In this document: piece by piece, positions 14,456-40,460 of the stretch | How positions within the stretch are numbered: the stretch's first letter is position 1 | Layout of the letters: each line of letters begins with the position of its first letter | From: a virus | Virus record (IMG/VR): IMGVR_UViG_3300029989_000005 | Direction: 5' to 3' (one strand) | DNA: 64,000 bases | Program-made: the position numbers and the translations under genes | The notes under the pieces: generated by a model | What the model was told of the DNA's origin: nothing | Database searches by the model: none | The model's input: only the letters and a program-made list of their open reading frames with translations

Positions 14456-15823
14456 ATGTCAAAATTCAAATCAATATCCCCAATAGATAGTAGATACCGT
14501 AAGGATGGTGTTATGCGTGAACTATGTTCATACGAGAATCAGATAAACACAAAAATTTATTCTGAATTTCAATGGTTTCTCTTTCTTTGTGAAATTAATG
14601 GTATACCACCAAGTAATTCACAACTTAATGAGCTATATTCACACCTTTTTAACAACTTAGAAAAATTTAATGCTTTTGAAAAAATAACAAAGCATGATAT
14701 AAAAGCTGTTGAATATTATGTAAAATCTGTTGCTCAAAGTTCTGATTTTTACACATCAAAATCAGAACTTGAGGGTATAAAAATTATATCATACATACAT
14801 TTTGGTCTTACAAGTCAAGATATAGTAAGCCTATCATCAAATTCACTTTTTTCAAATATTTCTAATGAATTGATATTTAACATTACAATGTTATTGGACT
14901 CGTTACATAAAGTATTTTGTGAAAATTCTGTATTAATGATTGGATTCACTCACGGACAACCCGCTGTACCAATAAATTCAAAATTAATATACAAAAACTA
15001 TAATAGTAGAATCTCATCTTTACTCACCAATCTGACTAATATACAACCAAGTGTTAAGTTTGGTGGTGCTGTTGGTAATAATTCATCTATGAAACTAATA
15101 GGTATTACCAACATAGATGAATTAATGGATAAATTTATTAATGGGTTTACATCATTGAACTTGAGTGTAAATATGTCATTAAAACGTTCTGAGAATACTA
15201 CTCAAGTTGATAATTGGGTATATTTGGTTGATTTACTTAAAGAATATTTACAACTTGCATCAATATGTATTGATTTATGCCGAGATTTATGGCATTATTG
15301 TTCAATAGGATATTTGTATCAAAGTAAAGATGATGGTCAAATTGGTTCATCAACGATGGTTCAAAAAACTAATCCAATAGATTTCGAAAATTGTGAGGGT
15401 ATAATGGAAAAGATGGAATCTGATTTTTCATTTTATATCAAGAAATTTTCGAAATCAAGATTACAACGTGACCTGACTGATTCTGTTGCTATTAGAATGG
15501 TATTTGAAAGTTTCGCAATGTTTGATGTTGCCATAAATTCTTTACGTAGAGGCTTGTCTAAAACATCATTAAATGAAGAATTTATAACCAAAGAATTAGA
15601 TAATCATTATGAAATGTCAGCTGAATATCTGCAGCTATTCATGAAAAATGCGGGATTACCCGACGCTTATGAAACAATATTCAATCGTCTGAAAGATACA
15701 AAGTTGACAGATAAACTTAGCTACAGAAATTTTATTATTAAGCTTTATTCTGATTGTGTAATTAATAAGATAATGTATGATAAACTTATAAACTTTGACC
15801 TTAATGATTATAAAACATTTTAA
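14456..15823 (+). CDS. purB: adenylosuccinate lyase
   Basis: ISPIDSRY, TKHDIKAVEY, HFGLTSQDI, THGQPA, GSSTMVQKTNPIDFENCEG, SRLQRDLTDS. Confidence 0.95.
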   Translation: MSKFKSISPIDSRYRKDGVMRELCSYENQINTKIYSEFQWFLFLCEINGIPPSNSQLNELYSHLFNNLEKFNAFEKITKHDIKAVEYYVKSVAQSSDFYTSKSELEGIKIISYIHFGLTSQDIVSLSSNSLFSNISNELIFNITMLLDSLHKVFCENSVLMIGFTHGQPAVPINSKLIYKNYNSRISSLLTNLTNIQPSVKFGGAVGNNSSMKLIGITNIDELMDKFINGFTSLNLSVNMSLKRSENTTQVDNWVYLVDLLKEYLQLASICIDLCRDLWHYCSIGYLYQSKDDGQIGSSTMVQKTNPIDFENCEGIMEKMESDFSFYIKKFSKSRLQRDLTDSVAIRMVFESFAMFDVAINSLRRGLSKTSLNEEFITKELDNHYEMSAEYLQLFMKNAGLPDAYETIFNRLKDTKLTDKLSYRNFIIKLYSDCVINKIMYDKLINFDLNDYKTF

Positions 15824-15835
15824 TATCAACTGATT

Positions 15836-16057
15836 ATGATTATTATTATATTATTGTTAGGAATTTTTATATTTATACCATTTATATCCACGTTTGTTTT
15901 GGGTTCTATAATTCTTTATAATGATTTATTTCATAATATACCATATAAAGAATTATACAAAATAAATAAAGCTTTCAAGACCTCATATATATTTTTCTTA
16001 TCATCATTAATTGTATTTATTATTATCATTTTATTTTTAAATAAAATAAAATTGTAA
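15836..16057 (+). CDS. small 2-TM membrane protein
   Basis: two hydrophobic segments; coupled to neighbours. Confidence 0.5.
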   Translation: MIIIILLLGIFIFIPFISTFVLGSIILYNDLFHNIPYKELYKINKAFKTSYIFFLSSLIVFIIIILFLNKIKL

Positions 16058-16758
16058 TGGTTACGCAGAAAGCTATTTCACCAATAACATATTTCTCAAT
16101 AGAAACTAGACAGGAGATTGAAATTAATGCTGATAAAATTATAGACTTTACAGATCAAATTTTTTCAAGCAAAAAGGCGGTTAATTTCAATCATAATGGA
16201 ACTTTTATTATATCACCCGAATTTGAAGGTAAGCCAAATTTGGTATCATATGCATTATATACAGATCAAAATGTTGCCGATATAATGATGTTTTATAGTG
16301 AAATAAGCAATCCATTTTCTATTTCATCTGATATGATTGTTATGATGCCTGATATTTCTGATGCTGTTGGTGCTGTGAATTCTCAATCATCTGAGGTAAC
16401 AAAGAAGAAAAAGAATAAATCGCAAATAGAATTTGCGAAGAACATTAATGTTCAAGACAAAAAGCGTGTTATGGAACTGATAAGACAAAGTAACCCATCT
16501 AGCGTTACTTTATCAGACATATCCAATATAAATGATGCGGGAATTAATACAAAAACAGGTAAGGTATCAACATTAGATGATTATATAAAATCACCCAACA
16601 TGACAACATCTGATCAACTTAAGATAATTGATGGGAAAGTTATATTGGGTGCTAATGTAAGTAGTAAAAAATGCTCTGATTCAGCAACAAAATCTCAGGG
16701 CTTATCAACATCAATAAGGCAATCAATACTTGCTAAAATAAAAACAGGTGAAATTTAA
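16057..16758 (+). CDS. baseplate wedge protein gp53-like (LysM-like)
   Basis: EGKPNLVSYALY...IMMFYSEISNPFSI motif. Confidence 0.6.
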   Translation: MVTQKAISPITYFSIETRQEIEINADKIIDFTDQIFSSKKAVNFNHNGTFIISPEFEGKPNLVSYALYTDQNVADIMMFYSEISNPFSISSDMIVMMPDISDAVGAVNSQSSEVTKKKKNKSQIEFAKNINVQDKKRVMELIRQSNPSSVTLSDISNINDAGINTKTGKVSTLDDYIKSPNMTTSDQLKIIDGKVILGANVSSKKCSDSATKSQGLSTSIRQSILAKIKTGEI

Positions 16759-16761
16759 ATT

Positions 16762-17199
16762 TTATTTTGATGTTCTTCCGTAATAAAACTCCAAAGTACT
16801 CTTGATGGATTTTCTAACATCCTCCATATCCAAATTGTTTATTATTATATCAATAATTTCCTCTTGCTTTAAATCCTGTTCGAACAAATCTAATAAAAAT
16901 TTAAATGTTTTTTTATCGTAAACCTGTAGATTTATTGTAGACTTTAAAGGAATCTTTGACTTCCTAGATAAAATTTCTATAATTGTGCTTTCAACCTTTG
17001 GTGTATTTTTTGTAAATTCCGATTTAATCATATTTATTCCCTCTTGCCTCACAGGTCTGTCTTTCGGCTTCAACATTATATTATCTACCTTTGTTGAGTT
17101 ATCTGTAACTGATATCTCACTAGTGGCTTTTAATATACCTTCCAATTCGGGGTCAAAAAAATTACTATCTTCTGTTTTAGTGCTTTCAGGGGTGTCCAT
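16762..17199 (-). CDS. hypothetical protein
   Basis: ORF fills gap; no recognised motif. Confidence 0.55.
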   Translation of the reverse strand: MDTPESTKTEDSNFFDPELEGILKATSEISVTDNSTKVDNIMLKPKDRPVRQEGINMIKSEFTKNTPKVESTIIEILSRKSKIPLKSTINLQVYDKKTFKFLLDLFEQDLKQEEIIDIIINNLDMEDVRKSIKSTLEFYYGRTSK

Positions 17200-17252
17200 A
17201 ATTTTTATACGTTTATATGTTTATATGCTTAATTAAGTTATGTTTTCATGAT

Positions 17253-17281
17253 TTGATACTATTGTAATAACGTGAATATAA
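17253..17281 (+). promoter_or_regulatory. sigma70-like phage promoter TTGATA-N17-ATATAA (gp47-purZ operon)
   Basis: recurring motif. Confidence 0.6.
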
Positions 17282-17298
17282 ATGTATAAAACAATAAT

Positions 17299-18429
17299 AT
17301 GATTACAATACCCGATATAAATATTGTTATAGGTGATTTACATTTTGGTAGATATAGCAATGATCTGAAAGAGTTAGAAATATCACTTAACTATTTTAGA
17401 AAATTTATTTTGCCGATTCTTGATAAGTTGAATAAAGCATATGGTGCTGAAAATGTTGGTATAATACAAGTTGGTGATGTATATGATAACAGATCATTAA
17501 TTTCAACCGAAATACAAGATTCAATACTCGATACGTTCGAAAAAATTTCTGAGCACAATATTGTTGTTGTTGATACGGGTAATCATGATAAGTTTAATCA
17601 AACAATAACAACAAATCGTGTGCTATCATACATAAGTAACTGTATTGTTGTAAGACAGCCTACAAGATTTTTAACAAAAAGCGGTAAAAAGGTATCATTC
17701 ATCCCCGCAATTGAAAATAAAGATGGATTAGCTGAGGTTATATCAAACGATGAATACGCTGATTATATGTTTGGTCATGATGATATAGCGGGATTTTCTC
17801 ATGAAGGAATTATGGTAACCGAGGAAAAATCTATTAATATGTCACATTTTTCCAAGTATAAGCATGCTATCATCGGTCACATCCACAAGCCACAAGAGAA
17901 CAAAAATATAGTTTATGTTGGTGCAGCATATCACACAAGGAAAAATGAGTGGGAAAACAAACCACAGATTATGATAATAAATATTGCCGATGAATCATTT
18001 AAATATATAGAAAATAATGTATCACCAAAATATTTAAATGTATATCTTCCCGATTTATTGGATATGACTGTTACCGATGCAAATGATTTAATTAAAAATA
18101 ACAGGGTTTCCGTGTTTGTTGATGATTTTAATAGAATAAGTACAGTAAAGATAACTGAATTTCTTACAGGTTACTATTCACTTAAATATGAACAAAAAGT
18201 TGGTAAAATATATTCACAGAATGAAATAACTAATTCTGATGAAAATGTTGATTTTGATATAAATGATGATATCAAAGATATTATGTCAGAATACGTTACA
18301 TCATTAGATTCTGTGATTATAGATAAGAAGCTAATTCAAATTTCAGCGGTAACAAAGGATAAAATTATAAATAACCTTAACAAATTATATGAAATATCTA
18401 AAGACAATGTGAAAATGTTGGATATATAA
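17299..18429 (+). CDS. gp47/SbcD/Mre11-like metallophosphoesterase nuclease
   Basis: GDLHFG, GDVYDNR, GNHD, GHIH motifs. Confidence 0.9.
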   Translation: MITIPDINIVIGDLHFGRYSNDLKELEISLNYFRKFILPILDKLNKAYGAENVGIIQVGDVYDNRSLISTEIQDSILDTFEKISEHNIVVVDTGNHDKFNQTITTNRVLSYISNCIVVRQPTRFLTKSGKKVSFIPAIENKDGLAEVISNDEYADYMFGHDDIAGFSHEGIMVTEEKSINMSHFSKYKHAIIGHIHKPQENKNIVYVGAAYHTRKNEWENKPQIMIINIADESFKYIENNVSPKYLNVYLPDLLDMTVTDANDLIKNNRVSVFVDDFNRISTVKITEFLTGYYSLKYEQKVGKIYSQNEITNSDENVDFDINDDIKDIMSEYVTSLDSVIIDKKLIQISAVTKDKIINNLNKLYEISKDNVKMLDI

Positions 18430-18472
18430 AAAGGAAAATTAACCATTATTAAACCATTTATTAATTACAGCT

Positions 18473-18838
18473 ATGCAAGAACTTATTAACAAATTAGCCA
18501 ATTTAAAAAACGGTTTACAAGTCAAGAAATCTTTTAATACTCTCGATGAAATTTACAATAAAACGTATTTTACAGAGATGGTTAAGCATTTTGACACCAC
18601 CATTTCTGAAATTTCTGAAGGTGTAGTAAACCGTTCTACCATTTCTCTGAAAATATTGGAGTATACATCATTAATTGATGAATTAATTGAAAAACGTAAG
18701 AAAATCGAGAATTTTAACGACAAAAATTCCACTATGGAAAGATCAAAGATCACGTCATACATTGATTTTTTAACTCAGCTCAAGGATGTTTTTAATGAAG
18801 AACTTGGTGAAGAATTAAAAGACACTTATAAAAATTAA
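18473..18838 (+). CDS. hypothetical helical protein
   Basis: ORF between gp47 and purZ. Confidence 0.55.
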   Translation: MQELINKLANLKNGLQVKKSFNTLDEIYNKTYFTEMVKHFDTTISEISEGVVNRSTISLKILEYTSLIDELIEKRKKIENFNDKNSTMERSKITSYIDFLTQLKDVFNEELGEELKDTYKN

Positions 18839-18841
18839 TAT

Positions 18842-20245
18842 ATGTCACATTCAAAAACGCTTTTTAACCCCTTTTTTAAAGAAGGGAAAATTTCATTCAT
18901 TATGGATGGGTTCGCTGGGAGTAGTGGAAAGGGTCTTTTAGCATCAAATTTGGTAAAATACAGCAATAATTGTAATTTTGCTGTTTCAACCAATGGTCAA
19001 AATGCATCTCATTATTATGAGGAAAAATTTCCTGATGGTACAGAAAAAATTATTTTATTCAAAGTACTTCCTACATCATCTGTTTATCATGAAAAACTTG
19101 ATGCAGTATATGTTGCTCAGGGTGCTGCCTTTGAACCTCAAAGATTGCTTGAGGAAATTGAACTTACAGGTATACCACGTGGCAAGGTAAGAATTCATTA
19201 CAAGGCGGGGATTATTTCCAAGCAAGACAGAGATTTTGAATCAGGTGTTTGTAATTACGAGGGTAAAGTTAACGAGGAACGCCAAAAGGGAACAGTTACC
19301 TCAGGTACAACCGCTAGCGGTGCGGGTTCTGTACGTGCCAAAAAATGTATGAGAAATCCTGATCAAAGGATTTATGCATATGAATATCCTGAATTACAGG
19401 ATTTTTTGTGTGATACAGAACGTGAAATTATGGACAGACTTGATGCGGGTCAGTCAGGGCTTTTCGAAATTGCTCAGGGCTTTGCATTATCAAGTGGACT
19501 TTCATACAGTAAACGTAACACAACGGCACGTAACTGCTCAATTACTGCAGCCATGGATGATGCAATGATTCCACCATTTTATGCGGGTAACGTATTTATT
19601 AACTTGCGTACATTCCCTATTAAAATAAACAATAAAAAGTGGGTTTTAAAAGGTGGTATTCAATATTATACTACAAATGAACTATCATTATCTGAGGTTA
19701 AGGCAAGATTTGATGAAAGGTTGTTTAATTTCGAAGATAATGAAGATTATTTGGTAAAAGTCATAACCAAAAAGGATATTTTCCTTACGGGATTTGATTT
19801 GGAAAAATACCCAAATATTCCATATGACGAAATTGATTCTTATTCTGGCGATTGGTATAGAAATGGATGGGAAAAACCCGAAACACAGGAAGAACTTACT
19901 TGGGAACAGGTTGAGGCTCAATATGGTGGTGTGATTGATAAAAAAGCAATTTATACATCGCTTACTCTTATGCCAAGGAGAGTAGCCACATTCTCAAAAG
20001 AATTGCTTGTTGATGCAATAAGATATAACAGACCATCTAAAGATTCTGAAATTTTTCTATCTTTAAATTTCTGTAATTGGCTTGATAAGGAGATTGAGGG
20101 TAAAACCAAATTAACTGATACTACTCACAAAGTAATTGAGTGGCTTGAAAGCAATTTTGATGTTATCGATGAATTTGATAACGTATCACTTTCAATACTT
20201 GGAACAGGTAAATGGGTTGGAGAATTTATTAGCTTTCCAAGATAA
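18842..20245 (+). CDS. purZ: PurZ-like 2-amino-deoxyadenylosuccinate synthetase (adenylosuccinate synthetase family)
   Basis: DGFAGSSGKG (Ser at PurA Asp13), NASH, KVLP, EIAQGFALS, RTFPIK, QEELTWEQ, TSLTLMPRRVATFS, LNFCNWL (NFxN instead of TKLD). Confidence 0.75.
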   Translation: MSHSKTLFNPFFKEGKISFIMDGFAGSSGKGLLASNLVKYSNNCNFAVSTNGQNASHYYEEKFPDGTEKIILFKVLPTSSVYHEKLDAVYVAQGAAFEPQRLLEEIELTGIPRGKVRIHYKAGIISKQDRDFESGVCNYEGKVNEERQKGTVTSGTTASGAGSVRAKKCMRNPDQRIYAYEYPELQDFLCDTEREIMDRLDAGQSGLFEIAQGFALSSGLSYSKRNTTARNCSITAAMDDAMIPPFYAGNVFINLRTFPIKINNKKWVLKGGIQYYTTNELSLSEVKARFDERLFNFEDNEDYLVKVITKKDIFLTGFDLEKYPNIPYDEIDSYSGDWYRNGWEKPETQEELTWEQVEAQYGGVIDKKAIYTSLTLMPRRVATFSKELLVDAIRYNRPSKDSEIFLSLNFCNWLDKEIEGKTKLTDTTHKVIEWLESNFDVIDEFDNVSLSILGTGKWVGEFISFPR

Positions 20246-20262
20246 TACCTATTGATTATACT

Positions 20263-20299
20263 TTTGAAGAGGATAATTGTTATAATTATCCTCTTCAAA
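20263..20299 (+). terminator. inverted-repeat terminator after purZ
   Basis: TTTGAAGAGGATAATT-gttat-AATTATCCTCTTCAAA. Confidence 0.7.
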
Positions 20300-20324
20300 T
20301 ATATTTAAATAATAAAAAATTGCT

Positions 20325-21119
20325 ATGGCAGATGAATTCAATAATGAGATGAACGTTAAAAAGAATTACGAAAATGTATTCTTACGGTCTGTAATTGTTT
20401 CTTTCACATCTTTCATGTCAGACATAATTGAATTTGAAAGACATAAAAAAGGTAAAACTGAAATTATTAAATGCCCTGTGTTTTATTCATATACAGGTGA
20501 TCAGGCTTTTCTGTCTGATATGTTTTTAGATTCTCACAGATTTCCATATAGTGGCGGGAAACAATTAGCTGAGGGTAATGTAATGCCTATACCCTCAGGT
20601 ACATTTTCTGTCAAAGAATCGGGTGTACAAAATTCTAGTGTTAGTGGCGGTAATGAAAGGATTTTATATTTTGTAGACGAAGAAAATGAGCACGGTGTAC
20701 AACCGCAAGTTCCGTATTCAGCAAGGGGTGTGTGGTTTCCTGAATCATTTTTGGTGGATTTAGAAATAAAAGCATCATCAGAGCTAGATAGGTTGAAAAT
20801 ATATGATGCTATAATAGAAAACTTGTACAAAACTAGGAAAACTTATATAGATGATTATAAAGGGTTTAAAAAGATACCTTTAACAATTGCATTTCCTGAA
20901 ACACAACAATTAAGTAGATCATTTTCATTTTTTGCCAATTCACAAAGCGATTTACCATCTTTAAAATTGCAATTGGAAATTTATACAAAAAGACCTATAA
21001 TTGATAAATCAACAGCACAAAAACTTGATACTAAAGTTAAAAGTATACATATTGATGAATATTTGAAATCGGTTGGAGAAGAGGGAAACGAATTATTAGG
21101 TAGTTCAGATATTAATTAA
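20325..21119 (+). CDS. tail terminator / sheath stabiliser gp15-like
   Basis: FLRSVIVSF...EIIKCPVFYS N-terminus resembles T4 gp15; TAAATAA at 20306. Confidence 0.6.
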   Translation: MADEFNNEMNVKKNYENVFLRSVIVSFTSFMSDIIEFERHKKGKTEIIKCPVFYSYTGDQAFLSDMFLDSHRFPYSGGKQLAEGNVMPIPSGTFSVKESGVQNSSVSGGNERILYFVDEENEHGVQPQVPYSARGVWFPESFLVDLEIKASSELDRLKIYDAIIENLYKTRKTYIDDYKGFKKIPLTIAFPETQQLSRSFSFFANSQSDLPSLKLQLEIYTKRPIIDKSTAQKLDTKVKSIHIDEYLKSVGEEGNELLGSSDIN

Positions 21120-21124
21120 AATTC

Positions 21125-22258
21125 ATGGCAAATATAATTAAAATACCAACAGAACCTATTGAACAAGTATTATCACAACCGTATAAAACTGACACGGTTG
21201 GATATTTTGTTAATATATTTAACGGTAGGTCTAAAGCATCTAAACGAAAATTTAATTTTCCTGATAAAGGACAAGCGGCTCAATTTTATACTGATAATTC
21301 GGGCAAATGGAGAATAGATTTCACGGATTTATCAGGTAATTTATTAGCTGATGAAAAAAGCTTGTTATTTGATTCAAGAGCTTTAGCATATTCACAATAT
21401 GCTAAACTAATGAGCAAAAATAAGGAAGTTATAGAAAATACAGAGGATGATGTAGAGGATATAGTTATTGAACAACTTGAAAGGACATTTGAGCAATATC
21501 TCCCATCATTGGTAAAAAGTCAACCAAAAAGAAAGTCAAATTTCAGTGATCTACCCAAATTTGATGATGAAGATGAAGATGAAGAACACGAAAAAGAACA
21601 TGATGAGGATGTATTACAAGCTGAGGAAAAATACATACAGGCATCATCTATAGCACTTACAGAGGCAAAAAGCTTATTAGGCTCTATAGCTGAACTTTAT
21701 ATCGAAAAAGGTGTTATAGAAAAATTTCCGTATTTCAAAAATAAATTATATTTTGAGGAGAATTCTATACAAATGATTCATACTCAAATGATGATTTCGC
21801 AGCTTGTGCTTAAGAAATTTTTTAAACAAGTAATTAAAAATCCTACAGCTAAAAACATTGAATCACTGTCTAAAATACAAATGTCACAATTAGCCTTGAG
21901 TAAATATCAAAGGGAATACTTGTCTGATGTCGAGGAATCTTTCAAAAAACTCAAGAAAGATTATGTTAATGGTGAATTTGTTAATCAGTCAGGAATAGAG
22001 GAAGGTGAGGTTATAATACCTGATACACCTGTTTTCAATGATAGGAAAAAATTAATAATGGAGCTTTCTGAGGTTGTTGAAGCTGATGATTTAATACCTC
22101 TATCGCCCAATCAGAATTTAAGAAATAATATCAAAGATAATGAAAGAAACAGGTATGAAACATCGTTTAAAATTCACACTCAAAGTGAATCATCTAAAGA
22201 CGAAGAAATACTTGTTGAAAAAAACGCTGAGGATATATTTAGCAGCTTTATGGACTAA
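21125..22258 (+). CDS. hypothetical, possible terminase small subunit
   Basis: helical/acidic; immediately upstream of the TerL ATPase fragment. Confidence 0.35.
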   Translation: MANIIKIPTEPIEQVLSQPYKTDTVGYFVNIFNGRSKASKRKFNFPDKGQAAQFYTDNSGKWRIDFTDLSGNLLADEKSLLFDSRALAYSQYAKLMSKNKEVIENTEDDVEDIVIEQLERTFEQYLPSLVKSQPKRKSNFSDLPKFDDEDEDEEHEKEHDEDVLQAEEKYIQASSIALTEAKSLLGSIAELYIEKGVIEKFPYFKNKLYFEENSIQMIHTQMMISQLVLKKFFKQVIKNPTAKNIESLSKIQMSQLALSKYQREYLSDVEESFKKLKKDYVNGEFVNQSGIEEGEVIIPDTPVFNDRKKLIMELSEVVEADDLIPLSPNQNLRNNIKDNERNRYETSFKIHTQSESSKDEEILVEKNAEDIFSSFMD

Positions 22259-22262
22259 CACA

Positions 22263-23351
22263 ATGGGACTATTAGAAATTTTGGAAAAAACTTTAAATGC
22301 TATATTAAAAATAGTTATATTTTTAAATTATAATCTGTGGAAATATAAAGTTGAGGAAGACTGTATAATTAGTTCCTCTATTCCTAAAGATAATTTATTG
22401 GTAAACGGTATAAAGGGTGGTCAATATTTATCGGCTGTCCATATTAAGACAAATGCCGAAATACTTAAAATAACTACTAAAAATGGATGCTTTGTAAAGT
22501 GTTCTGTAAATCATTTGTTTTATGATTCAAATATGCAGATAATTGATGCTAATAACGTAACAAGGCAGACATTTTTAATCACAAAACAAGGAATATCACG
22601 TGTTGTAAAAGTAGAAAAATTACCTAGACAATTTACTTTTGATGTTACAGTTGGTTCAGGAGAAATGAGTTATTTTTCTAATGATATACTGAGCCATAAT
22701 TCTATTACATCAGGTATTTTTATAATGTGGTATTTACTTACCAATTATGATAAAGGTGTCGCATGTACTTCGGCAACCGATGATAAAGTTAAAGAACTTA
22801 TAGAAAAGATAGATACAATATACGACAATTTGCCATTTTATATGAAACTTGGTATATGTGTTGATAATCAAAAGAGGAAAATATATGATAATGGCTGCTC
22901 AATAAAAGGTGAAACAGCAACAGAGAAAGCGGGTGCAGGTCTTACTGTTAACGGTATACTTTACTGTGATGAATTTGCACTGATTGACCCACAGGTATTA
23001 AAAATATTCTATCAAACTATTTTTCCAACAATGTCATCGTCAAAAACAGCAAAGATGATAATTACATCTACAGCAAGAGGCAGAAATTTATTTTGGCAAT
23101 TGTACACTGATGGATTACTTGGTAAAAATTATTTCAATCCTATACGTGTAGATTGGTTTGATGTTGAGGGTAGAGATGATAAATGGAAACAAGAGGAAAC
23201 AGCCAACATAGGTTCTGAGGAAGCATTTGAGCAAGAGTATGGAAATAGTTTTGATACCAATCAACAATTACTTTTGCCATCTGATGTTATGAAGTCATTA
23301 AAATCATATCAATCACACTTTACAAATAATCGGCTTTCCAATGCATCTTGA
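22263..23351 (+). CDS. atypical split-intein C-fragment (22263-22700) fused to terminase large subunit ATPase fragment
   Basis: KCSVNH (block B), FDVTV...YFSNDILSHN|S; extein SITSGIFIMWY follows the Walker-A GK position; ILYCDEFA Walker B, IITSTARG, FEQEYGNSF as in T4 gp17; likely start ATG 22263. Confidence 0.9.
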   Translation: MGLLEILEKTLNAILKIVIFLNYNLWKYKVEEDCIISSSIPKDNLLVNGIKGGQYLSAVHIKTNAEILKITTKNGCFVKCSVNHLFYDSNMQIIDANNVTRQTFLITKQGISRVVKVEKLPRQFTFDVTVGSGEMSYFSNDILSHNSITSGIFIMWYLLTNYDKGVACTSATDDKVKELIEKIDTIYDNLPFYMKLGICVDNQKRKIYDNGCSIKGETATEKAGAGLTVNGILYCDEFALIDPQVLKIFYQTIFPTMSSSKTAKMIITSTARGRNLFWQLYTDGLLGKNYFNPIRVDWFDVEGRDDKWKQEETANIGSEEAFEQEYGNSFDTNQQLLLPSDVMKSLKSYQSHFTNNRLSNAS

Positions 23352-24208: not shown

Positions 24209-25687
24209 ATGATAAATTCAAAACAAATATTTAATGACATGTCTATCTCCTATTTCAATGAAAATGGTGAAATAGACTTGGTTAATATTCCAATTTCAGA
24301 TAGTGAAAAATTTGTTTGGGAGGAAGCAGGATTAGATGATAGATACAAACATCCTACTATAACATCTCAATTTGATAGACCCGTAAAAAAGATACGTAAA
24401 AATTATCTAACAAAATACAGGCAATACGAATATATAAATAATTTACCACAGCATTTACAGGACAAAATATTTTCAGATAACAAGCCAAAGAAATGGTTTT
24501 GGGATATAGAAACAGAAACTGTTAATGGTGTGTATACCGAGGCATCCAATCCTATTGGTAGAATATTACTCCATACTATTTGTGATGAATATGGAAATGG
24601 TACTATATTTGGGATGAAGGAATTGACGGGTGAGCAATTAAAAAGAATTGAAATAAAATTAAACGCTCATTTATCTAAAATATTGGATAAAAAAATAGTT
24701 AAACAAGTAAATCTAAAATACCGTCAATACAAAGATGAATACTCCATGAATTGCGATTTTGCCGTAAACTATATGAGCAAAATGTCTGTAATATTCGGTT
24801 GGAATGTTTTAAAATTTGATGCACAATATTATTTTAATAGGTGTAAAAGAACAGGTATTGATTATGCAAAAATTATATCACCTGTAGGAAAAACATTTTC
24901 TCATTCGCTTTCTGATAAATACAACAAAGAAAATAAAATAATATTAGATTTACCATTGCATAGACCAATTATTGATTATATGCAAATATTTGAATTCTTT
25001 GACCAATCTGTTGCGTATAAAACATCTATGTCATTAGGGTTTATTTCGAATGAGGTATTGGGTGTTACCAAAATTGAATACAATGGAAACTTACAAGATT
25101 TATACGACACAGATTTTGAGAAATTTTGCTTTTATGGTATAACTGATGCTTTTCTTGTAGAAATGATTGACAAGAAAACCGATATATTTTCCTTGATGCA
25201 AACTATAACCAACATTGGAAAGGTTGATTTACTTTTGGGAACATCGGTTTCAATTATAATAGAATCAATCTTTAGTGATTATTATTACAAAACTTACAAT
25301 AAGGTATTTATAAAAGAAGAAAACATAAAAGAAGGCTATGCGGGTGCTTTTGTTGTTGAGCCAACAATAGGCTTATATGAATACATTGGCATTTATGACT
25401 TCGAAAGTCTTTATCCATCCATAATGCAATTCCTAAATGTTGGTCTTGATACTTATATAGGTCAAACATATGACGATAAAACAACCGTTGTTACAAAAAC
25501 AGGTGAGCAAATACCATATGATAAAAACACTATGATACGTGCTAACAATGGTGTAGTATATACAAGTGAAAAAGATGGATGTGTTAGAACTGTCATAGAC
25601 AACTTGTTTACAAAGCGTGTTAAGGCAAAATATGCTAATCATGATATTGCTCATGATATAGAAGAACTTAAAAAATTAATAGCTTAA
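24209..25687 (+). CDS. family B DNA polymerase, N-terminal fragment (3'-5' exonuclease, motif A, start of fingers)
   Basis: WDIETE (ExoI), GWNVLKFD (ExoII), YGITD (ExoIII), GYAGAFVVEP, YDFESLYPSIM; ends before KxxxNSxYG and YGDTDS. Confidence 0.9.
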   Translation: MINSKQIFNDMSISYFNENGEIDLVNIPISDSEKFVWEEAGLDDRYKHPTITSQFDRPVKKIRKNYLTKYRQYEYINNLPQHLQDKIFSDNKPKKWFWDIETETVNGVYTEASNPIGRILLHTICDEYGNGTIFGMKELTGEQLKRIEIKLNAHLSKILDKKIVKQVNLKYRQYKDEYSMNCDFAVNYMSKMSVIFGWNVLKFDAQYYFNRCKRTGIDYAKIISPVGKTFSHSLSDKYNKENKIILDLPLHRPIIDYMQIFEFFDQSVAYKTSMSLGFISNEVLGVTKIEYNGNLQDLYDTDFEKFCFYGITDAFLVEMIDKKTDIFSLMQTITNIGKVDLLLGTSVSIIIESIFSDYYYKTYNKVFIKEENIKEGYAGAFVVEPTIGLYEYIGIYDFESLYPSIMQFLNVGLDTYIGQTYDDKTTVVTKTGEQIPYDKNTMIRANNGVVYTSEKDGCVRTVIDNLFTKRVKAKYANHDIAHDIEELKKLIA

Positions 25688-26068: not shown

Positions 26069-27667
26069 ATGAATGACAAAGTACAAATAAAAACAGGTGC
26101 TGAGGCAAGAGATACGATACTTTATGGTGCAAAACAATTATGTGATATTGTATCATCTACACTAGGTCCTGGAGGCAAAAACGTATTACTCAAGCATTTA
26201 AATGAAAGAATCATACAATCCACAAAAGATGGTGTCACTGTTGCTAAATTTATAGAACTTGAAAATGAATGGGAAAACATAGGGTGTAACCTGCTCAAGC
26301 AATCATCAATGAGAACGGCATTAAATGCGGGTGATGGCACTACATCTACGGTTGTGTTTGCTTATGCACTTATGAAAGAGATAAATGAATTTTTGAAATC
26401 AAATCCTGATTTTAATGTTCATAAACTCCGTGATGATTTAAACAAATCAAAGGATTTGATGATTGAATATATTAAGGATCATTCAATAATTTCAAAAACA
26501 AATAAGGATATTAGAAACATTGCCATGATTTCTACAAATGGAGATGTTAGAATATCCGATTTGATTGCATCGGCATATGATAAATTCGGAAATGAACATG
26601 GAACTATAATGGTTGAACCATCACCATCAACTGAAACATCAATAACTATACAAAGCGGGATTAAAATAGCTTCGGGATATTCTAGTTATATGTTCATGAC
26701 AGATGTTAATAAGATGATTTCTGAGCTAACAGATTGTGGTATAATTATAACAGACCACAACATTTCAAAAGGCTCTGATATGTTAAAAATTCTTAGTATA
26801 GCCAATACCAATTATAAATCATTACTTATAATTGGTGAGAATATTGAGGGTGAAGCTGTTCAGACTATGATTGCCAATCATATGAGCCAAAAGATGAAAA
26901 TATGTTTGATAAAACCAACATTTTACGGTGAAAGAAGAAAAGATTATTTGTCAATGATTGCATCCGCTACATTAGCAACACCTTTTTATATTGAGTCTGG
27001 TACTAAGCTAGCTGAATTCAGTTCTAAGTTTATTGGCTCTGCTCAAAAAATTGTAGTGAGTAAAGATGAAACAAATATTCAAATATATGACATTAATAAG
27101 CCTAATCTTGATACAAAAATTTGTCAAATAGAGGAAAATATAAAGTCTATGATTGAAACAGGTTCACCCGAAGAGAATGAGGCTATTCAATGGAAACGTA
27201 ATTTGCTATCTTTTGCAAAGGGAAATATAGCTACGATTAAAATCGGTGGTAATTCCGATACAGAAATTTATGAGGTAAAGGATAGAATTGATGATGCAAT
27301 AGCTGCCGTTAAATCATCTATTGAGGAAGGTGTATCGGTTGGTGCGGGTGCATCATACATAAAGGCTGCTTATCAATTACCACCTTATTCAATTTCAGGC
27401 AATTTGATTAAGTCGGCATCGGAATCAATAAAAAGAAAATTGTTAAGCAACTTGTGTATTTCCGATATTGATAAGCTGATTATAGATGACATATTAGATG
27501 ACAATAATGGTATTAATATGTATGGTGAATTAGCAAACCTTGTCGAGGATGGTATTATCGACCCAACAAAAGTAATAAGGAATTGTATAGAAAATGCTAT
27601 TTCCGTAGCTACAATGTTTTTACTTACCGACAATATAGCGATGAAAGTCGAGGACATCTTAATATAA
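26069..27667 (+). CDS. groEL: chaperonin GroEL (phage-encoded, no GGM tail)
   Basis: TLGPGGKNV, TKDGVTVA, AGDGTT, KDRIDDAIAA, GIIDPTKV. Confidence 0.93.
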   Translation: MNDKVQIKTGAEARDTILYGAKQLCDIVSSTLGPGGKNVLLKHLNERIIQSTKDGVTVAKFIELENEWENIGCNLLKQSSMRTALNAGDGTTSTVVFAYALMKEINEFLKSNPDFNVHKLRDDLNKSKDLMIEYIKDHSIISKTNKDIRNIAMISTNGDVRISDLIASAYDKFGNEHGTIMVEPSPSTETSITIQSGIKIASGYSSYMFMTDVNKMISELTDCGIIITDHNISKGSDMLKILSIANTNYKSLLIIGENIEGEAVQTMIANHMSQKMKICLIKPTFYGERRKDYLSMIASATLATPFYIESGTKLAEFSSKFIGSAQKIVVSKDETNIQIYDINKPNLDTKICQIEENIKSMIETGSPEENEAIQWKRNLLSFAKGNIATIKIGGNSDTEIYEVKDRIDDAIAAVKSSIEEGVSVGAGASYIKAAYQLPPYSISGNLIKSASESIKRKLLSNLCISDIDKLIIDDILDDNNGINMYGELANLVEDGIIDPTKVIRNCIENAISVATMFLLTDNIAMKVEDILI

Positions 27668-34491: not shown

Positions 34492-34495
34492 AGTC

Positions 34496-34978
34496 ATGTT
34501 TGGTAAAAAAATTATTTTAATAGGTGCGGGTGCATCGGGTAAAGACTTCTTAAGGAAAAACTTTCAGTATACTCTTAATTTTAAATTTGGCATATCTTGT
34601 ACCTCTAGATTACCAAGAAATGGTGAAATCAATGGTGAGGATTATAGATTTATGTCAAAATACGATTTTAAAAGAAAAATTGAGCATGGTGAAATGCTGC
34701 AATACTCTGATTTTGGTAGTGCATATTACGGAACATCAAGGGAGGACTTCAACGAATGTAACTTATTCATAATGTCACCTGATGGTCTTAAGCAGCTAAC
34801 AAAAGAGGATAGAGATAAATGTACAGTAATTTGGGTGAAATCAGATGAAGATATAATATACAAAAGATTATTGAAACGAGGAATGTCTGAGGAAAATATA
34901 AATGACAGACTTTTTGCCGACTACAGTCTGTTTATGGAATATACAGACTTTGATTATATTATAATCAATAATGGTTAA
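34496..34978 (+). CDS. gmk: guanylate kinase
   Basis: GAGASGKD, SCTSRLPRNGEINGEDYRF, YYGTS. Confidence 0.9.
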   Translation: MFGKKIILIGAGASGKDFLRKNFQYTLNFKFGISCTSRLPRNGEINGEDYRFMSKYDFKRKIEHGEMLQYSDFGSAYYGTSREDFNECNLFIMSPDGLKQLTKEDRDKCTVIWVKSDEDIIYKRLLKRGMSEENINDRLFADYSLFMEYTDFDYIIINNG

Positions 34979-35508
34979 AAATTGGTATCCGTGTTTTCAC
35001 CTTTTGGGAAACTCGACTTTGGTTGTTGTGCTATTATAGTTGTTATAAATTTATCGCCTGAATCATTATAACCTGAACGGTACATTGAAAATTTTTTGCC
35101 TGTAAGAAATAAATTTTTAATGTACCTATCATCTACTATAAACATTCTCCAACCCGACTTTTTTGCAAATCCTGTTTTTAGATTTTTAGATTTTTGAGAT
35201 TTTGATTTGTGTCTAGCTAATTTATCAGTTATGGAATCATCTTTTAATGTGTCTGATATAACATAAAATCTCATATATGTTACAGTTTCCCCTTTTTTAT
35301 TTGTTCTGTAACCTATGGCATATGGTTCACCAAACCTTGGACCGCTAGTGCCATCACCTGTTTTATCGGTATAATAAAAACTAATATATTGCCTTGTGTT
35401 AATAGCCTTTATAAGTTGATCTAACTTCACAGAACCCATAGCCTCAAAAACAGGTTTGGAACTTACTTTTATAATAACATTATTTTCAGATAATTTTAAA
35501 GGCTTCAT
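34975..35508 (-). CDS. WYL-domain-like protein
   Basis: LIKAINTRQYISFYY...RFGEPYAIG...GWRMFIVD. Confidence 0.6.
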   Translation of the reverse strand: MKPLKLSENNVIIKVSSKPVFEAMGSVKLDQLIKAINTRQYISFYYTDKTGDGTSGPRFGEPYAIGYRTNKKGETVTYMRFYVISDTLKDDSITDKLARHKSKSQKSKNLKTGFAKKSGWRMFIVDDRYIKNLFLTGKKFSMYRSGYNDSGDKFITTIIAQQPKSSFPKGENTDTNF

Positions 35509-35560
35509 TAATTTTTATTTTATTTAAAAACATAACTTTAAATAAAATAAATCATTGACA

Positions 35561-37183
35561 ATGGATTTATCAAAAACATACGAGAATATCAAATCGGGTG
35601 GTGCTATTAATAAATTGCTTGGGGTAGATTCTTTATTTACCGATGTAGAAAAGAAAAGAAATGAGCAGGATAAATTTCTTGATAATGGCAAAGAAAGATT
35701 TTTCAATTCAAGTTTCAATTACAAGAAATCTAGGGGTGATAGTAATATTAAAAATAAGGACACTGTTGTATTAAAATATGCAGATGACCCTACTTTACTA
35801 GGATTTAAATTGATTCCAAACTTATCAAGCCCGTTGTTTAATATTACTGTTGCTGATTCTAACGAAGAACAGGAGGAATCGGCATTTGCATATCTTTTAT
35901 CAATAAATCAACAAGACAGAGCCAAAAAATTACTTAATTTTATTGAGTCTTTTAAACTTCTTGTACAGGAATATCCATATTATTTACAAGAATTATCGGG
36001 ATTGGGTGATTTGTACAAAATAGAAGGGCATAGATCATATTATGAAAGGAAATTAAAAATAAAAACATATGAATCTGTAGACCTATTTATATCGGCAATG
36101 ATGCATGATTACATAAATGCGGTATATGATTTTACAGAACTTAAATGGGTAGTTCCTATAAATTTATTGTACTTCGATTTAATAATTTATATTTCTGAGG
36201 TAAGAAAATTCAAGACTGTATATAACATAATTAGTGACAATTATCTTGATGATACTAATATAAATTATGTACTTGATAAAGATTCAATGTTTTTGCTTAA
36301 CAAATATATAGGTGCTTATGCTATTAGGTTTAATAAGTGTAGCTTTGAATCAGAGCATATAAATAAATACTTGTCGAATATAAGTAATCAATCTCCTAAA
36401 TCACCCGAAAACGAAATAGGTATGTGTCTTGGTAAAATGTCTTTTCATTTGACTAATTTACATCCATTTTCTCATGTTTATAAATATTATGATGAAATAT
36501 ACCCATTGGTTAATGATGTAAATTATGACACGGAATCAGAACTAAATAGGTTTAATGTCAAGTCAGAACAATCTGACAAAGGTATATTTGATATGGCTCT
36601 TGATATAGTAAAAGAAGAGGCGGCTAAAACAGCAAACGGACTAATAAAGCAAGTTACAAGTAAAGTCGAAAACACCATAACTTTTGGAGTTTCCAAATTA
36701 GAAACTCTTGGTAAAGAAATAATATCTGAATATACACCATCTAATATAATTAATAGATTAATAGGTGATGAACTTGATAAGGTATCTAAAAATGTAAATG
36801 ATGGGCTTAATAGTTTTATAGACGATTTGGAAGCTAATTCTACTAACAAAACAGGTAATTTAAAAAGAAATGCCGATAATGAAAGGCTTGCATCACTTTT
36901 AATAAATCAAAACAATGTTATACAGCCTACTTCCGACATTGTTAGTGATAATACTAATGTTATAAATACAAAAGGAGCTATCTCTGAGTTTATGCCTGAT
37001 ATTAAAAACATAAACTCAGGTATCAAATCATTATACGCAATAAATTTAAAGGAAGAAACCAAGAAAGCACAAAATGAGGATTTGAGGAAGAAAGTACTTA
37101 CCATGATCTTGGATGGTACTGATGAAATTAAATTGTTAAGGGAAACCCTGTTTATTGGAAATACAAATCAAAAAATAAACTAA
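35561..37183 (+). CDS. putative virion structural protein
   Basis: TAAATAA at 35539; DDPTLLGFKL...PYYLQELSGL; likely ATG 35561. Confidence 0.45.
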   Translation: MDLSKTYENIKSGGAINKLLGVDSLFTDVEKKRNEQDKFLDNGKERFFNSSFNYKKSRGDSNIKNKDTVVLKYADDPTLLGFKLIPNLSSPLFNITVADSNEEQEESAFAYLLSINQQDRAKKLLNFIESFKLLVQEYPYYLQELSGLGDLYKIEGHRSYYERKLKIKTYESVDLFISAMMHDYINAVYDFTELKWVVPINLLYFDLIIYISEVRKFKTVYNIISDNYLDDTNINYVLDKDSMFLLNKYIGAYAIRFNKCSFESEHINKYLSNISNQSPKSPENEIGMCLGKMSFHLTNLHPFSHVYKYYDEIYPLVNDVNYDTESELNRFNVKSEQSDKGIFDMALDIVKEEAAKTANGLIKQVTSKVENTITFGVSKLETLGKEIISEYTPSNIINRLIGDELDKVSKNVNDGLNSFIDDLEANSTNKTGNLKRNADNERLASLLINQNNVIQPTSDIVSDNTNVINTKGAISEFMPDIKNINSGIKSLYAINLKEETKKAQNEDLRKKVLTMILDGTDEIKLLRETLFIGNTNQKIN

Positions 37184-37184
37184 T

Positions 37185-37436
37185 ATGAACTCAGATTATT
37201 CTATATATAAGTCATTAAAACATAGAAAAGATAATGTTAAAAATCTTGGGTATGATTATAGAGGTAATATAATGAAAAATTCTATTTCCAATATTATAAA
37301 AAATAGTAATAATCAAACTCTCCAAGATATATTAAAGCTTATAGACAGCTGCTTGGATTTTATGATTGTTGGTGTTAAGACTATTAAATCTAGAGTAAAC
37401 ATATGTGTTGATAAAGATACAGACCTTATAAATTAA
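37185..37436 (+). CDS. hypothetical protein
   Basis: coupled in operon. Confidence 0.55.
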   Translation: MNSDYSIYKSLKHRKDNVKNLGYDYRGNIMKNSISNIIKNSNNQTLQDILKLIDSCLDFMIVGVKTIKSRVNICVDKDTDLIN

Positions 37437-37437
37437 T

Positions 37438-39060
37438 ATGGATAACGAATTATTAAAATCTATATTACCCGAAGACCTTTATCAAGAATTAGTTAACCTT
37501 GATAAAAACGTTGTGGAACTAGATACCTGCAGGATTCCAAAAAATGGTGAACCTATTGATATATTACAAGGGTGTGTTCCTGTAATACCCAAATTCAACA
37601 ATGTAAAAGATGTAAAAGGCATAAATGACATAATAAGTTCTATACTATCTGATTCACCGTTACTTAAAGATGTAAATTTAGACGAACAAAGGAAGAATTG
37701 TCTAGATATTATACAAACTGTAGCTTTAAACCTTTCAAAGGCAAGTTTAGATAGGTTGAATAAAAATCAATTAATACCTTTACAAAAAATATTGTTAAAT
37801 TTAATAGAAATAACAATATACAACACTATACTTGAAAAAAACAACAAATCACATCAATGTTTTAATTTATCTTTGAACTCTGATAATTATTACAGCCTTA
37901 TTCCACGTATTAAAAATTATCATTTACAATCAGGAATTAGGTCTTATGGCATACATGATATATTTGATGATATGATAAGGTCTGTAATTATTAAAAAGGA
38001 ATATAAAACCACACAAAATACAAATATATCTCATGTAATAAAATATTTTGTAGATTTAAACAAGTTGTCTGATAGTGATATAGGTGATGGAACTGTGGAT
38101 ATAAAAACTATAATATACACAAGGTTACTAACATTTAAAAATATTTTATTAGGTGTACTTGGTGAATTATACAAAACTGTCAATACTCCTTTACTACCAC
38201 AACCACTAATTTATAATTTATCATCGGGTATTATAAATACTTATTTTAATGGAAATATTTCTGAAATAACTAATAAAAAACTAATTTCGGGGATAAGTAT
38301 AACGTTAAAGACAGATGATGAAATAATTGAGTACTATAAATCTCTTAACACATCACTACAAAAAAACTTATCCGAATACTTTTCTATAATTGATATGTTT
38401 GATTTAGATCAAATCAAATATGAACTAATATATGAATTATCAATTATTCCTTGTACAAGTTCAAATAAAGGATTTTATGAATCGGTAACAAATAACAAAG
38501 CTCAATATAAAGAAAATCTCAAGGATATTCCTATTAATTCAGATGAATACAATATATTCCTACCGACTTATTGGATGGTATGGACTACATATTTAAACTT
38601 AATATCATTGTTACCAAATCATTGGACTGTAGGATTTATAACACCCGTTGGTGCACCCGTTAAATTACCTATAATTTACATTCATTTGCTTACTATACCA
38701 ATCGGAAGTACAAACATAGTAGTTTGGCTAACAATAAATGGTTTGGCTATAGCACCTGTTGTAATGGTAGTAGATGGTAAAACAAAATCAACTTGGGAAG
38801 TACTGTTTAGGGGTGGAAAGCAACTAATAGAGGAGAGCCAAGGTTCTAAAACTGTACCAACAGGATTTAATTTACCTCAATATATAGGTGATTCACAAGC
38901 CGTTATTGACATTAATACTAACATAACTGAAAGTGCACCAATGTTGGAAGATGCATTTCCACCAATGTATAGAATGTCACCGTTAAATCTTGTATTCTTA
39001 AAATTTCTTAATTCATGCTGTGATAAAGGAAAAATATTCATGGGACTGATACCAATATAA
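37438..39060 (+). CDS. hypothetical (probable structural) protein
   Basis: long ORF in late operon. Confidence 0.55.
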   Translation: MDNELLKSILPEDLYQELVNLDKNVVELDTCRIPKNGEPIDILQGCVPVIPKFNNVKDVKGINDIISSILSDSPLLKDVNLDEQRKNCLDIIQTVALNLSKASLDRLNKNQLIPLQKILLNLIEITIYNTILEKNNKSHQCFNLSLNSDNYYSLIPRIKNYHLQSGIRSYGIHDIFDDMIRSVIIKKEYKTTQNTNISHVIKYFVDLNKLSDSDIGDGTVDIKTIIYTRLLTFKNILLGVLGELYKTVNTPLLPQPLIYNLSSGIINTYFNGNISEITNKKLISGISITLKTDDEIIEYYKSLNTSLQKNLSEYFSIIDMFDLDQIKYELIYELSIIPCTSSNKGFYESVTNNKAQYKENLKDIPINSDEYNIFLPTYWMVWTTYLNLISLLPNHWTVGFITPVGAPVKLPIIYIHLLTIPIGSTNIVVWLTINGLAIAPVVMVVDGKTKSTWEVLFRGGKQLIEESQGSKTVPTGFNLPQYIGDSQAVIDINTNITESAPMLEDAFPPMYRMSPLNLVFLKFLNSCCDKGKIFMGLIPI

Positions 39061-39090
39061 ATAAATTAAAATAAATTAAAAATTAGAAAA

Positions 39091-39744
39091 ATGAAAAATC
39101 TAGCAAACAATTTTGTACTGTCACGTGCAAAAATTAGCAATTCATCGATACAAGTTGGTGATTTGTACATTACACCTAATTTTGACGAAAACATATCTGA
39201 TGAAATATTATCAGAGGTAGAAAGTATTGTCAGAAAAAACTTTACTAATGTAAGGCAATTAAACGGTAAATCTGTAAAGAATTTACGTCATTTATTTGAA
39301 GACAATGTTAAAACAACTCAATTTTTTATGGGTGCTCTGACATTATTGACGATAGATAAATGTAAATTTTATGTTGTTAACAACAAAACAGGTATACTAA
39401 TGCCAACAATATCGGTTTTGGAAGTTCAATTTCCAACTGCTGAGGAGGAAAAAGTGGAAGCACCTGTTGTGGAAGCACCTGTTGTGGAAGAAGTGGAAGC
39501 ACCTGTTGTGGAAGCACCTGTTGTGGAAGCACCTGTTGTGGAAGCACCTGTTGTGGAAGCACCTGTTGTGGAAGCACCTGTTGTGGAAGCACCTGTTGTG
39601 GAAGCACCTGTTGTGGAAGCAGTTAAGACAGAGGAAACCAAAGCACCTGTTGTAAAGCCCACAAAACCCACAAAAGTAGTTACTAAAAACGTTGCCGATG
39701 CTCAGAAGCAAAATGCAGCCAAAATAGAAGAAAGCTTAAAGTAA
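39091..39744 (+). CDS. hypothetical protein with (VEAPV)n low-complexity linker
   Basis: TAAATAA at 39058; internal repeat. Confidence 0.65.
   Translation: MKNLANNFVLSRAKISNSSIQVGDLYITPNFDENISDEILSEVESIVRKNFTNVRQLNGKSVKNLRHLFEDNVKTTQFFMGALTLLTIDKCKFYVVNNKTGILMPTISVLEVQFPTAEEEKVEAPVVEAPVVEEVEAPVVEAPVVEAPVVEAPVVEAPVVEAPVVEAPVVEAPVVEAVKTEETKAPVVKPTKPTKVVTKNVADAQKQNAAKIEESLK
39454..39621 (+). repeat. 15-bp tandem repeat GTGGAAGCACCTGTT (about 10 copies, one interrupted)
   Basis: directly visible. Confidence 0.95.
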
Positions 39745-39758
39745 AAACACAAATTTTG

Positions 39759-39801
39759 AACATAGATAAAGCCAAGGGTAACCCTTGGCTTTATCTATGT
39801 T
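39759..39801. terminator. 21-bp perfect inverted repeat with 1-nt spacer
   Basis: AACATAGATAAAGCCAAGGGT-a-ACCCTTGGCTTTATCTATGTT. Confidence 0.75.
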
Positions 39802-39829
39802 TGACAATAAAAACTCATAATAAATATAA
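39801..39829 (+). promoter_or_regulatory. sigma70-like promoter TTGACA-N17-ATATAA (MazG-like operon)
   Basis: recurring motif. Confidence 0.65.
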
Positions 39830-39845
39830 AAATTAAAAGTTATAC

Positions 39846-40460
39846 ATGAAATATACTATCAAAACCACAGCAGAATTACTTGATATCACAAACCAATATA
39901 GTAAAAATAAGAATTTAGCTGTTGAGATTAAAGGGAGCAATTTGGTTATATATAAAACTAAAGTCATAAGGTTGTTTGGTATAGAACTTATAATTACCAA
40001 GACTTCATTAGCATCTGTTGAAATATTACCATCTGTAAAAGATTATGATTATATAGAAACATATGTAAATTATGTTGGTCAGGAGATAATGAATAATAAA
40101 TCAGGTAATAAAATTATTCTTGATTTACTTAATATGTGTATGGGAAATTCCATTGAATCAAACGAGGTTTTAGGTCTTTTGCAGAAAAACGTATATTTCG
40201 GTGCACCATATGAGAAATGGAGAATGATTGATGAACTTTCAGATAATTTATTTTACTATGTTGGTATAATGAGATTAGTAGGTACTAATTTCGAAGAGGT
40301 TATGGAAGCCAATATGGTTAAACTGAAATCAAGATACCCTGACGGTAGGAAAAATTTGAATGTATTTGTGAATAAAAATAAGGAAAAAGAAAAAGAATTA
40401 ATAAAAGAATTAATACAAAAAAACGAAAAAAATGGAAAATCTGAAAACCCTGAAATTTAA
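39846..40460 (+). CDS. MazG-like nucleoside triphosphate pyrophosphohydrolase
   Basis: ESNEVLGLLQK...IDELSDNLFY...FEEVMEANMVKLKSRYP (ExxE...ExxD). Confidence 0.8.
   Translation: MKYTIKTTAELLDITNQYSKNKNLAVEIKGSNLVIYKTKVIRLFGIELIITKTSLASVEILPSVKDYDYIETYVNYVGQEIMNNKSGNKIILDLLNMCMGNSIESNEVLGLLQKNVYFGAPYEKWRMIDELSDNLFYYVGIMRLVGTNFEEVMEANMVKLKSRYPDGRKNLNVFVNKNKEKEKELIKELIQKNEKNGKSENPEI

Follow-up and report, generated by a model that had tools for sequence, protein, structure and literature searches.

The 64,000-nucleotide (nt) stretch of viral DNA recorded as IMGVR_UViG_3300029989_000005 in IMG/VR (the window, by which the whole stretch is meant) carries an open reading frame (ORF) for a long-form PurZ-type synthetase. 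The PurZ-type assignment is supported by residues, by a structure model and by phylogeny, and the protein is predicted to ligate aspartate to a guanine (deoxy)nucleotide in an ATP-dependent reaction. The phage DNA may contain 2-aminoadenine (Z). The gene is as follows.

18842..20245, + strand: long-form PurZ-type synthetase, 467 aa, assigned from motifs, fold and phylogeny

The translation contains GSSGKG (with Ser27), QEELTWEQ, TSLTLMPRRV and NFCNW, so that the four motifs which the original prediction had listed as PurZ hallmarks are all present at the places quoted. In an alignment with E. coli PurA, Ser27 falls at Asp13 and NFCN at TKLD, and at the Arg303 column, where the loop alignment is ambiguous, the ORF has Met, phiVC8 PurZ has Lys and S-2L PurZ has Leu. 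NFCNW aligns with NFCNY of phiVC8 PurZ. Two large searches gave homologues with Ser after the first P-loop Gly in every case (261/261) and GDEGKG in none. Ser27, Lys30, His57 (the PurA His41 position), Gln212, Trp354, Arg379-Arg380 and Phe410 are invariant in an alignment of 36 long-form sequences, in which the Arg-Arg pair and Thr372 of the aspartate loop are conserved. The NKxD-type Asp that specifies guanine is kept in PurA, PurZ0 and a basal group, and is lost in ATP-type PurZ and the whole long-form clade, with N-F-x-N-[YW] in its place. Residues discriminating PurZ from PurA have been named by a metagenomic association study and crystal structures (bioRxiv 10.1101/2025.10.22.683976). The phiVC8 PurZ residues Ser14, Trp252, Gly256, Thr262 and Phe295 are kept in the ORF; Tyr298 is replaced by Trp and Ser273 by Thr.

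The best relatives of known structure by sequence were phiVC8 PurZ (E 1.8e-13), S-2L PurZ (3.4e-12) and P. horikoshii PurA (1.2e-8), and among solved structures the C-terminal third, with EELTWEQ, the T-T/S-x-T-x-x-x-R-R loop and NFCN, aligns only with the two PurZ proteins. An AlphaFold model of the protein (pLDDT 93.4) had as its top PDB match phiVC8 PurZ with ATP and dGMP (TM 0.85 on the target), followed by P. horikoshii PurA (0.85), S-2L PurZ (0.81) and PurZ0 (0.77). Between FPIKIN and SGDWY the model places about 80 extra residues (about 264-335) in a compact alpha/beta subdomain, mostly at pLDDT >90; this insertion is the defining trait of the long form.

Two trees, one from FastTree (118 rows) and one from IQ-TREE (44 rows), were each rooted with E. 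coli PurA as the sole outgroup. In each, the long-form sequences form a single clade (100 and 99) that lies inside the non-PurZ0 PurZ radiation (97 in FastTree, 98 SH-aLRT in IQ-TREE), away from PurA and from PurZ0, which is near the base in both trees. The comparison with PurA, PurZ and PurZ0 proposed in the original prediction thus places the protein, under the E. coli PurA root, within the ATP-type PurZ radiation. Its nearest neighbour group includes P0005, the protein of G001, a complete IMG/VR relative (167,485 bp, CheckV 100%) that is syntenic with the window at ~70-75% nucleotide identity. Positions 106.8-167.2 kb of G001 are the counterpart of the window, and G001 was used as a proxy for the portion of the genome beyond it. 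The same subclade includes the protein of the closest cultured phage, Flavobacterium phage MaF61 (PQ858689; host Flavobacterium sp. B330), which is a myovirus of 167.8 kb and came from a lake in Finland. PurZ-like genes were found on only 7 contigs of metagenome-assembled genomes in a scan of 185,579 species genomes, so the family is essentially viral. Intein or homing-endonuclease domains occur in several PurZ-like homologues that are 550-820 residues long. On another contig (L061/L128, IMGVR_UViG_3300015607_004608, 19,170 bp), an open frame of 794 residues, possibly intein-containing or fused, includes the PurZ-like domain, and an adenosine-deaminase (ADA)-family gene is on the same ~19-kb contig.

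Several features sit less well with a PurZ assignment. Phe12 of phiVC8 PurZ is Ala in the ORF (Phe in MaF61), and the PurZ motifs NAGH, YPYxTSR and PIR read NASH, KRNTTAR and PIK. The NCBIfam PurZ model NF038379 gave 84.3 bits against a cut-off of 300, in a match spanning residues 18-286 only, and the archaeal-type PurA model PRK04293 came close to it with 81 bits (cut-off 368); the library models are undecided between PurZ and PurA because the two scores are nearly equal and both far under the cut-offs. The root of the trees is weakly placed because there is no archaeal PurA outgroup, and the ~80-residue insertion could accompany an altered substrate.

These scores, together with the equally close fold of P. 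horikoshii PurA, are what could favour a divergent true adenylosuccinate synthetase. Such an enzyme would make, with PurB and a deaminase acting on AMP or adenosine, the trio of the classical purine nucleotide cycle, or would boost AMP/dATP for an AT-rich genome (28-30% GC). This explanation is improbable: every homologue has Ser in place of the catalytic Asp13, the GTP site has lost the Asp that specifies guanine, the clade branches within the PurZ proteins and away from PurA, the PurA model TIGR00184 scored 32 bits with a cut-off of 395, and neither GMP reductase nor IMPDH was found in G001, G002, G003, G011 or MaF61, which all have long-form genes. A true PurA working in a purine nucleotide cycle is disfavoured by the invariant Ser at position 13 and the lost GTP pocket, as read from the sequences.

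The PurB, Gmk, deaminase and MazG-like genes reported in the original prediction are all present, according to Pfam, NCBIfam and PHROG matches. With the other genes that bear on nucleotide supply and replication, they are listed here.

14456..15823, + strand: PurB (adenylosuccinate lyase) of E. coli type; Lyase_1 and ASL_C domains, NF006764 at 272 bits
33478..34491, + strand: adenosine-deaminase-family enzyme of an uncharacterised subfamily; PF00962, 97 bits
34496..34978, + strand: Gmk (guanylate kinase); PF00625, 77 bits
39846..40460, + strand: MazG-like all-alpha NTP pyrophosphohydrolase; PF03819, 25 bits, and phrog_229
7414..9423, - strand: large subunit of ribonucleotide reductase (RNR), probably class II; weak Ribonuc_red_lgC match, class II insertion domain under the cut-off
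24209..25687, + strand: N-terminal piece of a split family-B DNA polymerase (PolB), ending just past motif A, DFESLYP

The catalytic motifs of PurB, THGQPA and GSSTMVQKTNP, are kept. Gmk keeps its P-loop and GMP-binding motif and is predicted to phosphorylate (d)GMP and dZMP. Its start lies 4 nt after the stop of the deaminase gene. Scans of the small ORFs of no known function beside purB, purZ and the deaminase gene gave no PHROG or Pfam matches. In the deaminase, the motifs HTH, HFGE, GHG and SD preserve the Zn ligands (HxH, His, Asp) as well as the Glu and His that serve in catalysis. It scored 92.5 bits with the ADA equivalog TIGR01430 (cut-off 216.55), as all members of its subfamily, some of them bacterial, fall under that cut-off. 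The positions of ADA Asp19 and Asp296 are Gly across the whole subfamily, in H-x-H-L-G-[GSA]-S and [ST]-D-G. In mouse ADA, Asp19 contacts the ribose 5'-OH and Asp296 contacts N7; loss of Asp19 would fit a 5'-phosphorylated substrate. The protein has the ADA fold (TM 0.78-0.80 to the Plasmodium, Salmonella and mouse enzymes), with nucleotide-level enzymes also matching (TM 0.73 for ADAL/MAPDA and 0.70 for Cad1, which deaminates ATP), and nucleoside and nucleotide substrates could not be separated from the fold search.

The MazG-like protein has a C-terminal domain with the ExxE...ExxD metal motif and an N-terminal part of ~90 residues of no assigned family, and it is conserved across the T4-like subgroup. 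It has no detectable resemblance to S-2L MazZ and matched no solved structure. It cannot be equated with MazZ, and its tie to a Z pathway is weak. The class II RNR of the original prediction stands as an RNR on the weak Ribonuc_red_lgC match, and its class is only probable; it is context and not specific to the pathway. Likewise a family-B polymerase is there, but the window gene is only the N-terminal piece of it. In G001 the PolB pieces are at 132781-133116 and 89660-90487, the C-terminal one ~40 kb away on the other strand and outside the part that matches the window, and the same split occurs in G002-G004, G014 and G021.

Co-occurrence was compared between 33 IMG/VR records with long-form genes and 17 with classical short PurZ. 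Many of the long-form records are fragmentary, so their counts are lower bounds, and the Fisher p-values (0.02 to 1e-11) are indicative only because the records are mutually related. The counts are given for the long form and then for the short form.

Lyase_1 (PurB): 12/33, 0/17
Guanylate_kin (Gmk): 12/33, 0/17
A_deaminase: 9/33, 0/17
HD_3 above the cut-off (DatZ-type): 2/33, 17/17
Strong PolA match: 2/33, 16/17
PolB: 12/33, 0/17

The pairing of phage-encoded PurB and Gmk with PurZ that had been noticed in the window therefore recurs in the long-form clade, and was seen in none of the classical PurZ records. Seven long-form genomes are essentially complete, six IMG/VR records (91-100% estimated completeness) and the complete MaF61 record; among them Gmk is present in 6/7, PurB in 5/7 and the deaminase in 4/7.

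G001: PurB, Gmk and deaminase present
G002 (complete): Gmk and deaminase present, PurB absent
G003: PurB and Gmk present, deaminase absent
G004: PurB and Gmk present, deaminase absent
G011: PurB, Gmk and deaminase present
G015 (provirus record, 91% estimated): deaminase present, PurB and Gmk absent
MaF61: PurB and Gmk present, deaminase absent

These genes are rare elsewhere. Among 50,697 phage records PurB had 4 matches, of which only MaF61 also has a long-form gene and the other three are likely contaminant contigs; Gmk was found in ~103 (roughly 0.2%), and the deaminase had zero matches. PurB has been listed by one paper in the Microcystis jumbo phage PhiMa05. The long-form clade has a different supporting cast and not the known Z cluster.

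The most likely reaction of the long-form enzyme would be phosphorylation of O6 of dGMP by ATP (or dATP) and joining of aspartate to give N6-succino-2-amino-2'-deoxyadenylate, with dGMP rather than GMP as the presumed substrate. Phage PurB would remove fumarate to give dZMP, the phage guanylate kinase would convert dZMP to dZDP, host Ndk would produce dZTP, and the split family-B polymerase would insert Z opposite T. Breakdown of host DNA, the source in T4-like phages, could supply the dGMP, perhaps with a contribution from the MazG-like enzyme. Something other than DatZ would probably lower or divert the adenine nucleotides; the candidates are a YfbR-like HD protein of G001 and the ADA-family enzyme, whose gene is apparently co-transcribed with gmk. 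Full substitution at 72% A+T would draw half of the nucleotides from the guanine pool, which would give a rationale for PurB, Gmk and an enzyme leading from adenine to IMP. This route from the long-form PurZ through phage PurB and Gmk to Z opposite T we regard as evenly balanced between true and false.

Other points count against Z in the virion DNA. No DatZ homologue, the HD-domain dATPase that the original prediction had suggested seeking in the rest of the genome, was found using phmmer in the window or in the proxy G001. PolA/DpoZ was found in none of G001-G004 and G011, which have the split PolB instead. Ndk was not found in G001, G002, G003, G011 and MaF61. DUF550 had no match in these five, but it had none in the control genomes either, so that this negative is uninformative. 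The pathway had been called self-contained, which is overstated, because close complete relatives lack Ndk, a DUF550 match and a DatZ orthologue. If dATP is not removed efficiently, Z substitution might be partial or nil. The absence of PurB from G002 and G015 counts in the same direction, as does the deaminase, since a 6-deaminase would revert Z nucleotides to G nucleotides, and so would fit awkwardly unless 2-amino purines are excluded from its site. Z in the virions of the clade, full or partial, is what we infer from genes and models.

The lack of DatZ, DpoZ and a DUF550 match would favour PurZ chemistry without a Z genome, in which the enzyme would act on GMP or the Z nucleotides would be transient, as a drain on dGTP in a phage of 28% GC or as a partial, non-essential substitution, and the deaminase would convert Z back to G or keep the pools even. 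ADA-fold enzymes deaminate 2,6-diaminopurine nucleosides to guanosine, and the recurrence of the deaminase with the long-form clade, the several motifs that differ next to the active site, the large insertion and the probable class II RNR would all be compatible with this. PurB and Gmk in several phage lineages, however, look like flux to the di- and triphosphate and not like a dead end, and we know of no role for ribo-Z nucleotides. We take this alternative to be unlikely, though a serious contender.

A more specific version of Z-DNA synthesis, which we think doubtful, concerns how adenine is removed. In it, T4-like PolB phages would build Z-DNA by their own PurZ, PurB and Gmk, and the ADA-family enzyme acting on (d)AMP/dATP, a YfbR-like 5'-deoxynucleotidase, or both would remove adenine nucleotides at the monophosphate level and also channel host adenine toward guanine nucleotides, of which a Z genome with 72% A+T would need large amounts. 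The YfbR-like candidate is a 260-residue protein of G001 (5065-5847) with a weak YfbR-like HD signal, homologous to HD_3 proteins of MaF61, G003, G011 and G013 (E 1e-21 to 1e-49) and a candidate 5'-deoxynucleotidase; the family is also represented in 182 phage records with no connection to Z, and the protein is not callable as DatZ because the family is so widespread in non-Z phages. The idea, prompted by a complementary distribution, that the deaminase and HD_3 proteins are alternative devices for excluding adenine was weakened by that spread and by the presence of an HD homologue in G001.

The motif deviations near the aspartate loop (Thr-Ser-Leu-Thr-Leu-Met-Pro), the new subdomain, and the new partner set, in which the deaminase is altered at the residue for the N7 contact, could instead suggest that a ligase related to PurZ works with a different amino-group donor or a different purine nucleotide and leads to a base other than Z. 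That is highly improbable, as the Arg-Arg pair and Thr372 of the aspartate loop are conserved, the apparently intact PurB implies a succinyl intermediate, and no other gene of the window resembles a purine-modifying enzyme.

Avoidance of four-base palindromes was considered as a proxy for unmodified adenine and rejected as non-discriminating. GATC was observed 61 times in the window (200 expected), 84 times in G001 (561 expected) and 4 times in phiVC8 (152 expected), and in the window CCGG (0 vs 45), GGCC (0 vs 31) and GCGC (0 vs 10.5) are absent; the MaF61 stretch shows similar avoidance. Because phiVC8, a proven Z phage, avoids GATC even more strongly, the avoidance cannot separate the readings. 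At least one GATC-type enzyme cuts dZ DNA (PMC12944874).

The GC content is 28-31% across the whole window (A+T ~72%), and no nucleotide match to the window was found among the 50,697 phage records. The window has the gene set of a large T4-like myovirus, with a terminase piece of T4 type that carries an intein, the family-B polymerase piece, GroES and GroEL, SbcC/SbcD-like nuclease subunits, a helicase, the ribonucleotide reductase and a large polyvalent protein. A protein identical to that of ORF 18842-20245 was found on metagenomic contigs of up to ~172-173 kb; the genome is therefore put at ~172 kb, and the label of jumbo phage does not hold, as this is below the 200-kb limit. DNA with dI or deazaguanine of the Campylobacter-phage type, a guess from the low GC, was dropped, there being no nucleotide match to cultured phages and the closest relative being MaF61. 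The following further ORFs were recorded.

136-795, - strand: ORF whose only match is an intein splicing domain
22140-23351, + strand: T4-type terminase piece, opening with an intein-like segment
25699-25983, + strand: GroES (Cpn10), just downstream of the polymerase piece
26069-27667, + strand: GroEL (Cpn60), paired with the preceding gene
48817-51954, + strand: ORF of 1045 residues with an LPD11 domain (large polyvalent protein-associated domain 11), 102 bits

In G001, a dUTPase-like ORF of 145 aa at 151310-151744 (E 4.7e-10 to a Dut-like protein of phage Wayne) sits in a segment of ~450 bp, which the window lacks at the syntenic position, ~44010.

With the PurZ proteins of Vibrio phage phiVC8, cyanophage S-2L and the Acinetobacter phage SH-Ab 15497-like phages (PDB 6FM1, 6FKO, 6TNH, 7ODX), the long form shares Ser at Asp13, the ATP-type pocket N-F-x-N-aromatic, the EELTWE and T-T/S-x-T-x-x-x-R-R motifs, the core fold (TM 0.81-0.85) and a place in the same radiation. 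Unlike them it is ~120 residues longer, with the ~80-residue subdomain, has 21-30% identity and falls below the NCBIfam PurZ cut-off. It is found in phages of 130-260 kb, many with a split PolB, and is accompanied by phage PurB, Gmk and often the deaminase, whereas the partners of classical PurZ are DatZ, MazZ/DUF550 and DpoZ. Ser at Asp13 and a short core of the archaeal type are also seen in PurZ0 of Arthrobacter phage Wayne and Gordonia phages (PDB 7VF6), but PurZ0 retains the Asp that specifies guanine, with GTP as the donor, and splits off close to the root, neither of which is true of ORF 18842-20245. The archaeal short adenylosuccinate synthetase, P. horikoshii PurA (PDB 5K7X, 2D7U), shares the core fold (TM 0.85) and a similar model score over the N-terminal half, but it reads GDEGKG, in which the catalytic Asp is present, has a pocket for GTP, and gives no significant match over the C-terminal third of the ORF.

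MaF61 has a PurZ-like gene of the long form that belongs to the same subclade (35% identity), encodes its own PurB and Gmk together with an HD_3 protein, and is without the ADA-family gene. Its genes are annotated just as putative adenosuccinate synthetase and lyase, and the MaF61 paper does not mention adenylosuccinate or restriction and uses 'modif' only for a modified extraction method. The known Z-genome phages are small sipho- and podoviruses that use host PurB and Gmk, the dATPase DatZ and a dedicated family-A polymerase. Phage-encoded PurB or Gmk in Z biosynthesis, myoviruses with it, and the long-form clade itself are not described in the searchable literature, which misses several key papers.

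If the clade is active, Z chemistry would extend to myoviruses of 130-260 kb with T4-type replication, in which the purine pools would be supplied and policed differently. Full substitution in a genome of ~72% A+T would sharply alter duplex stability. The cultured relative MaF61 makes the clade experimentally accessible.

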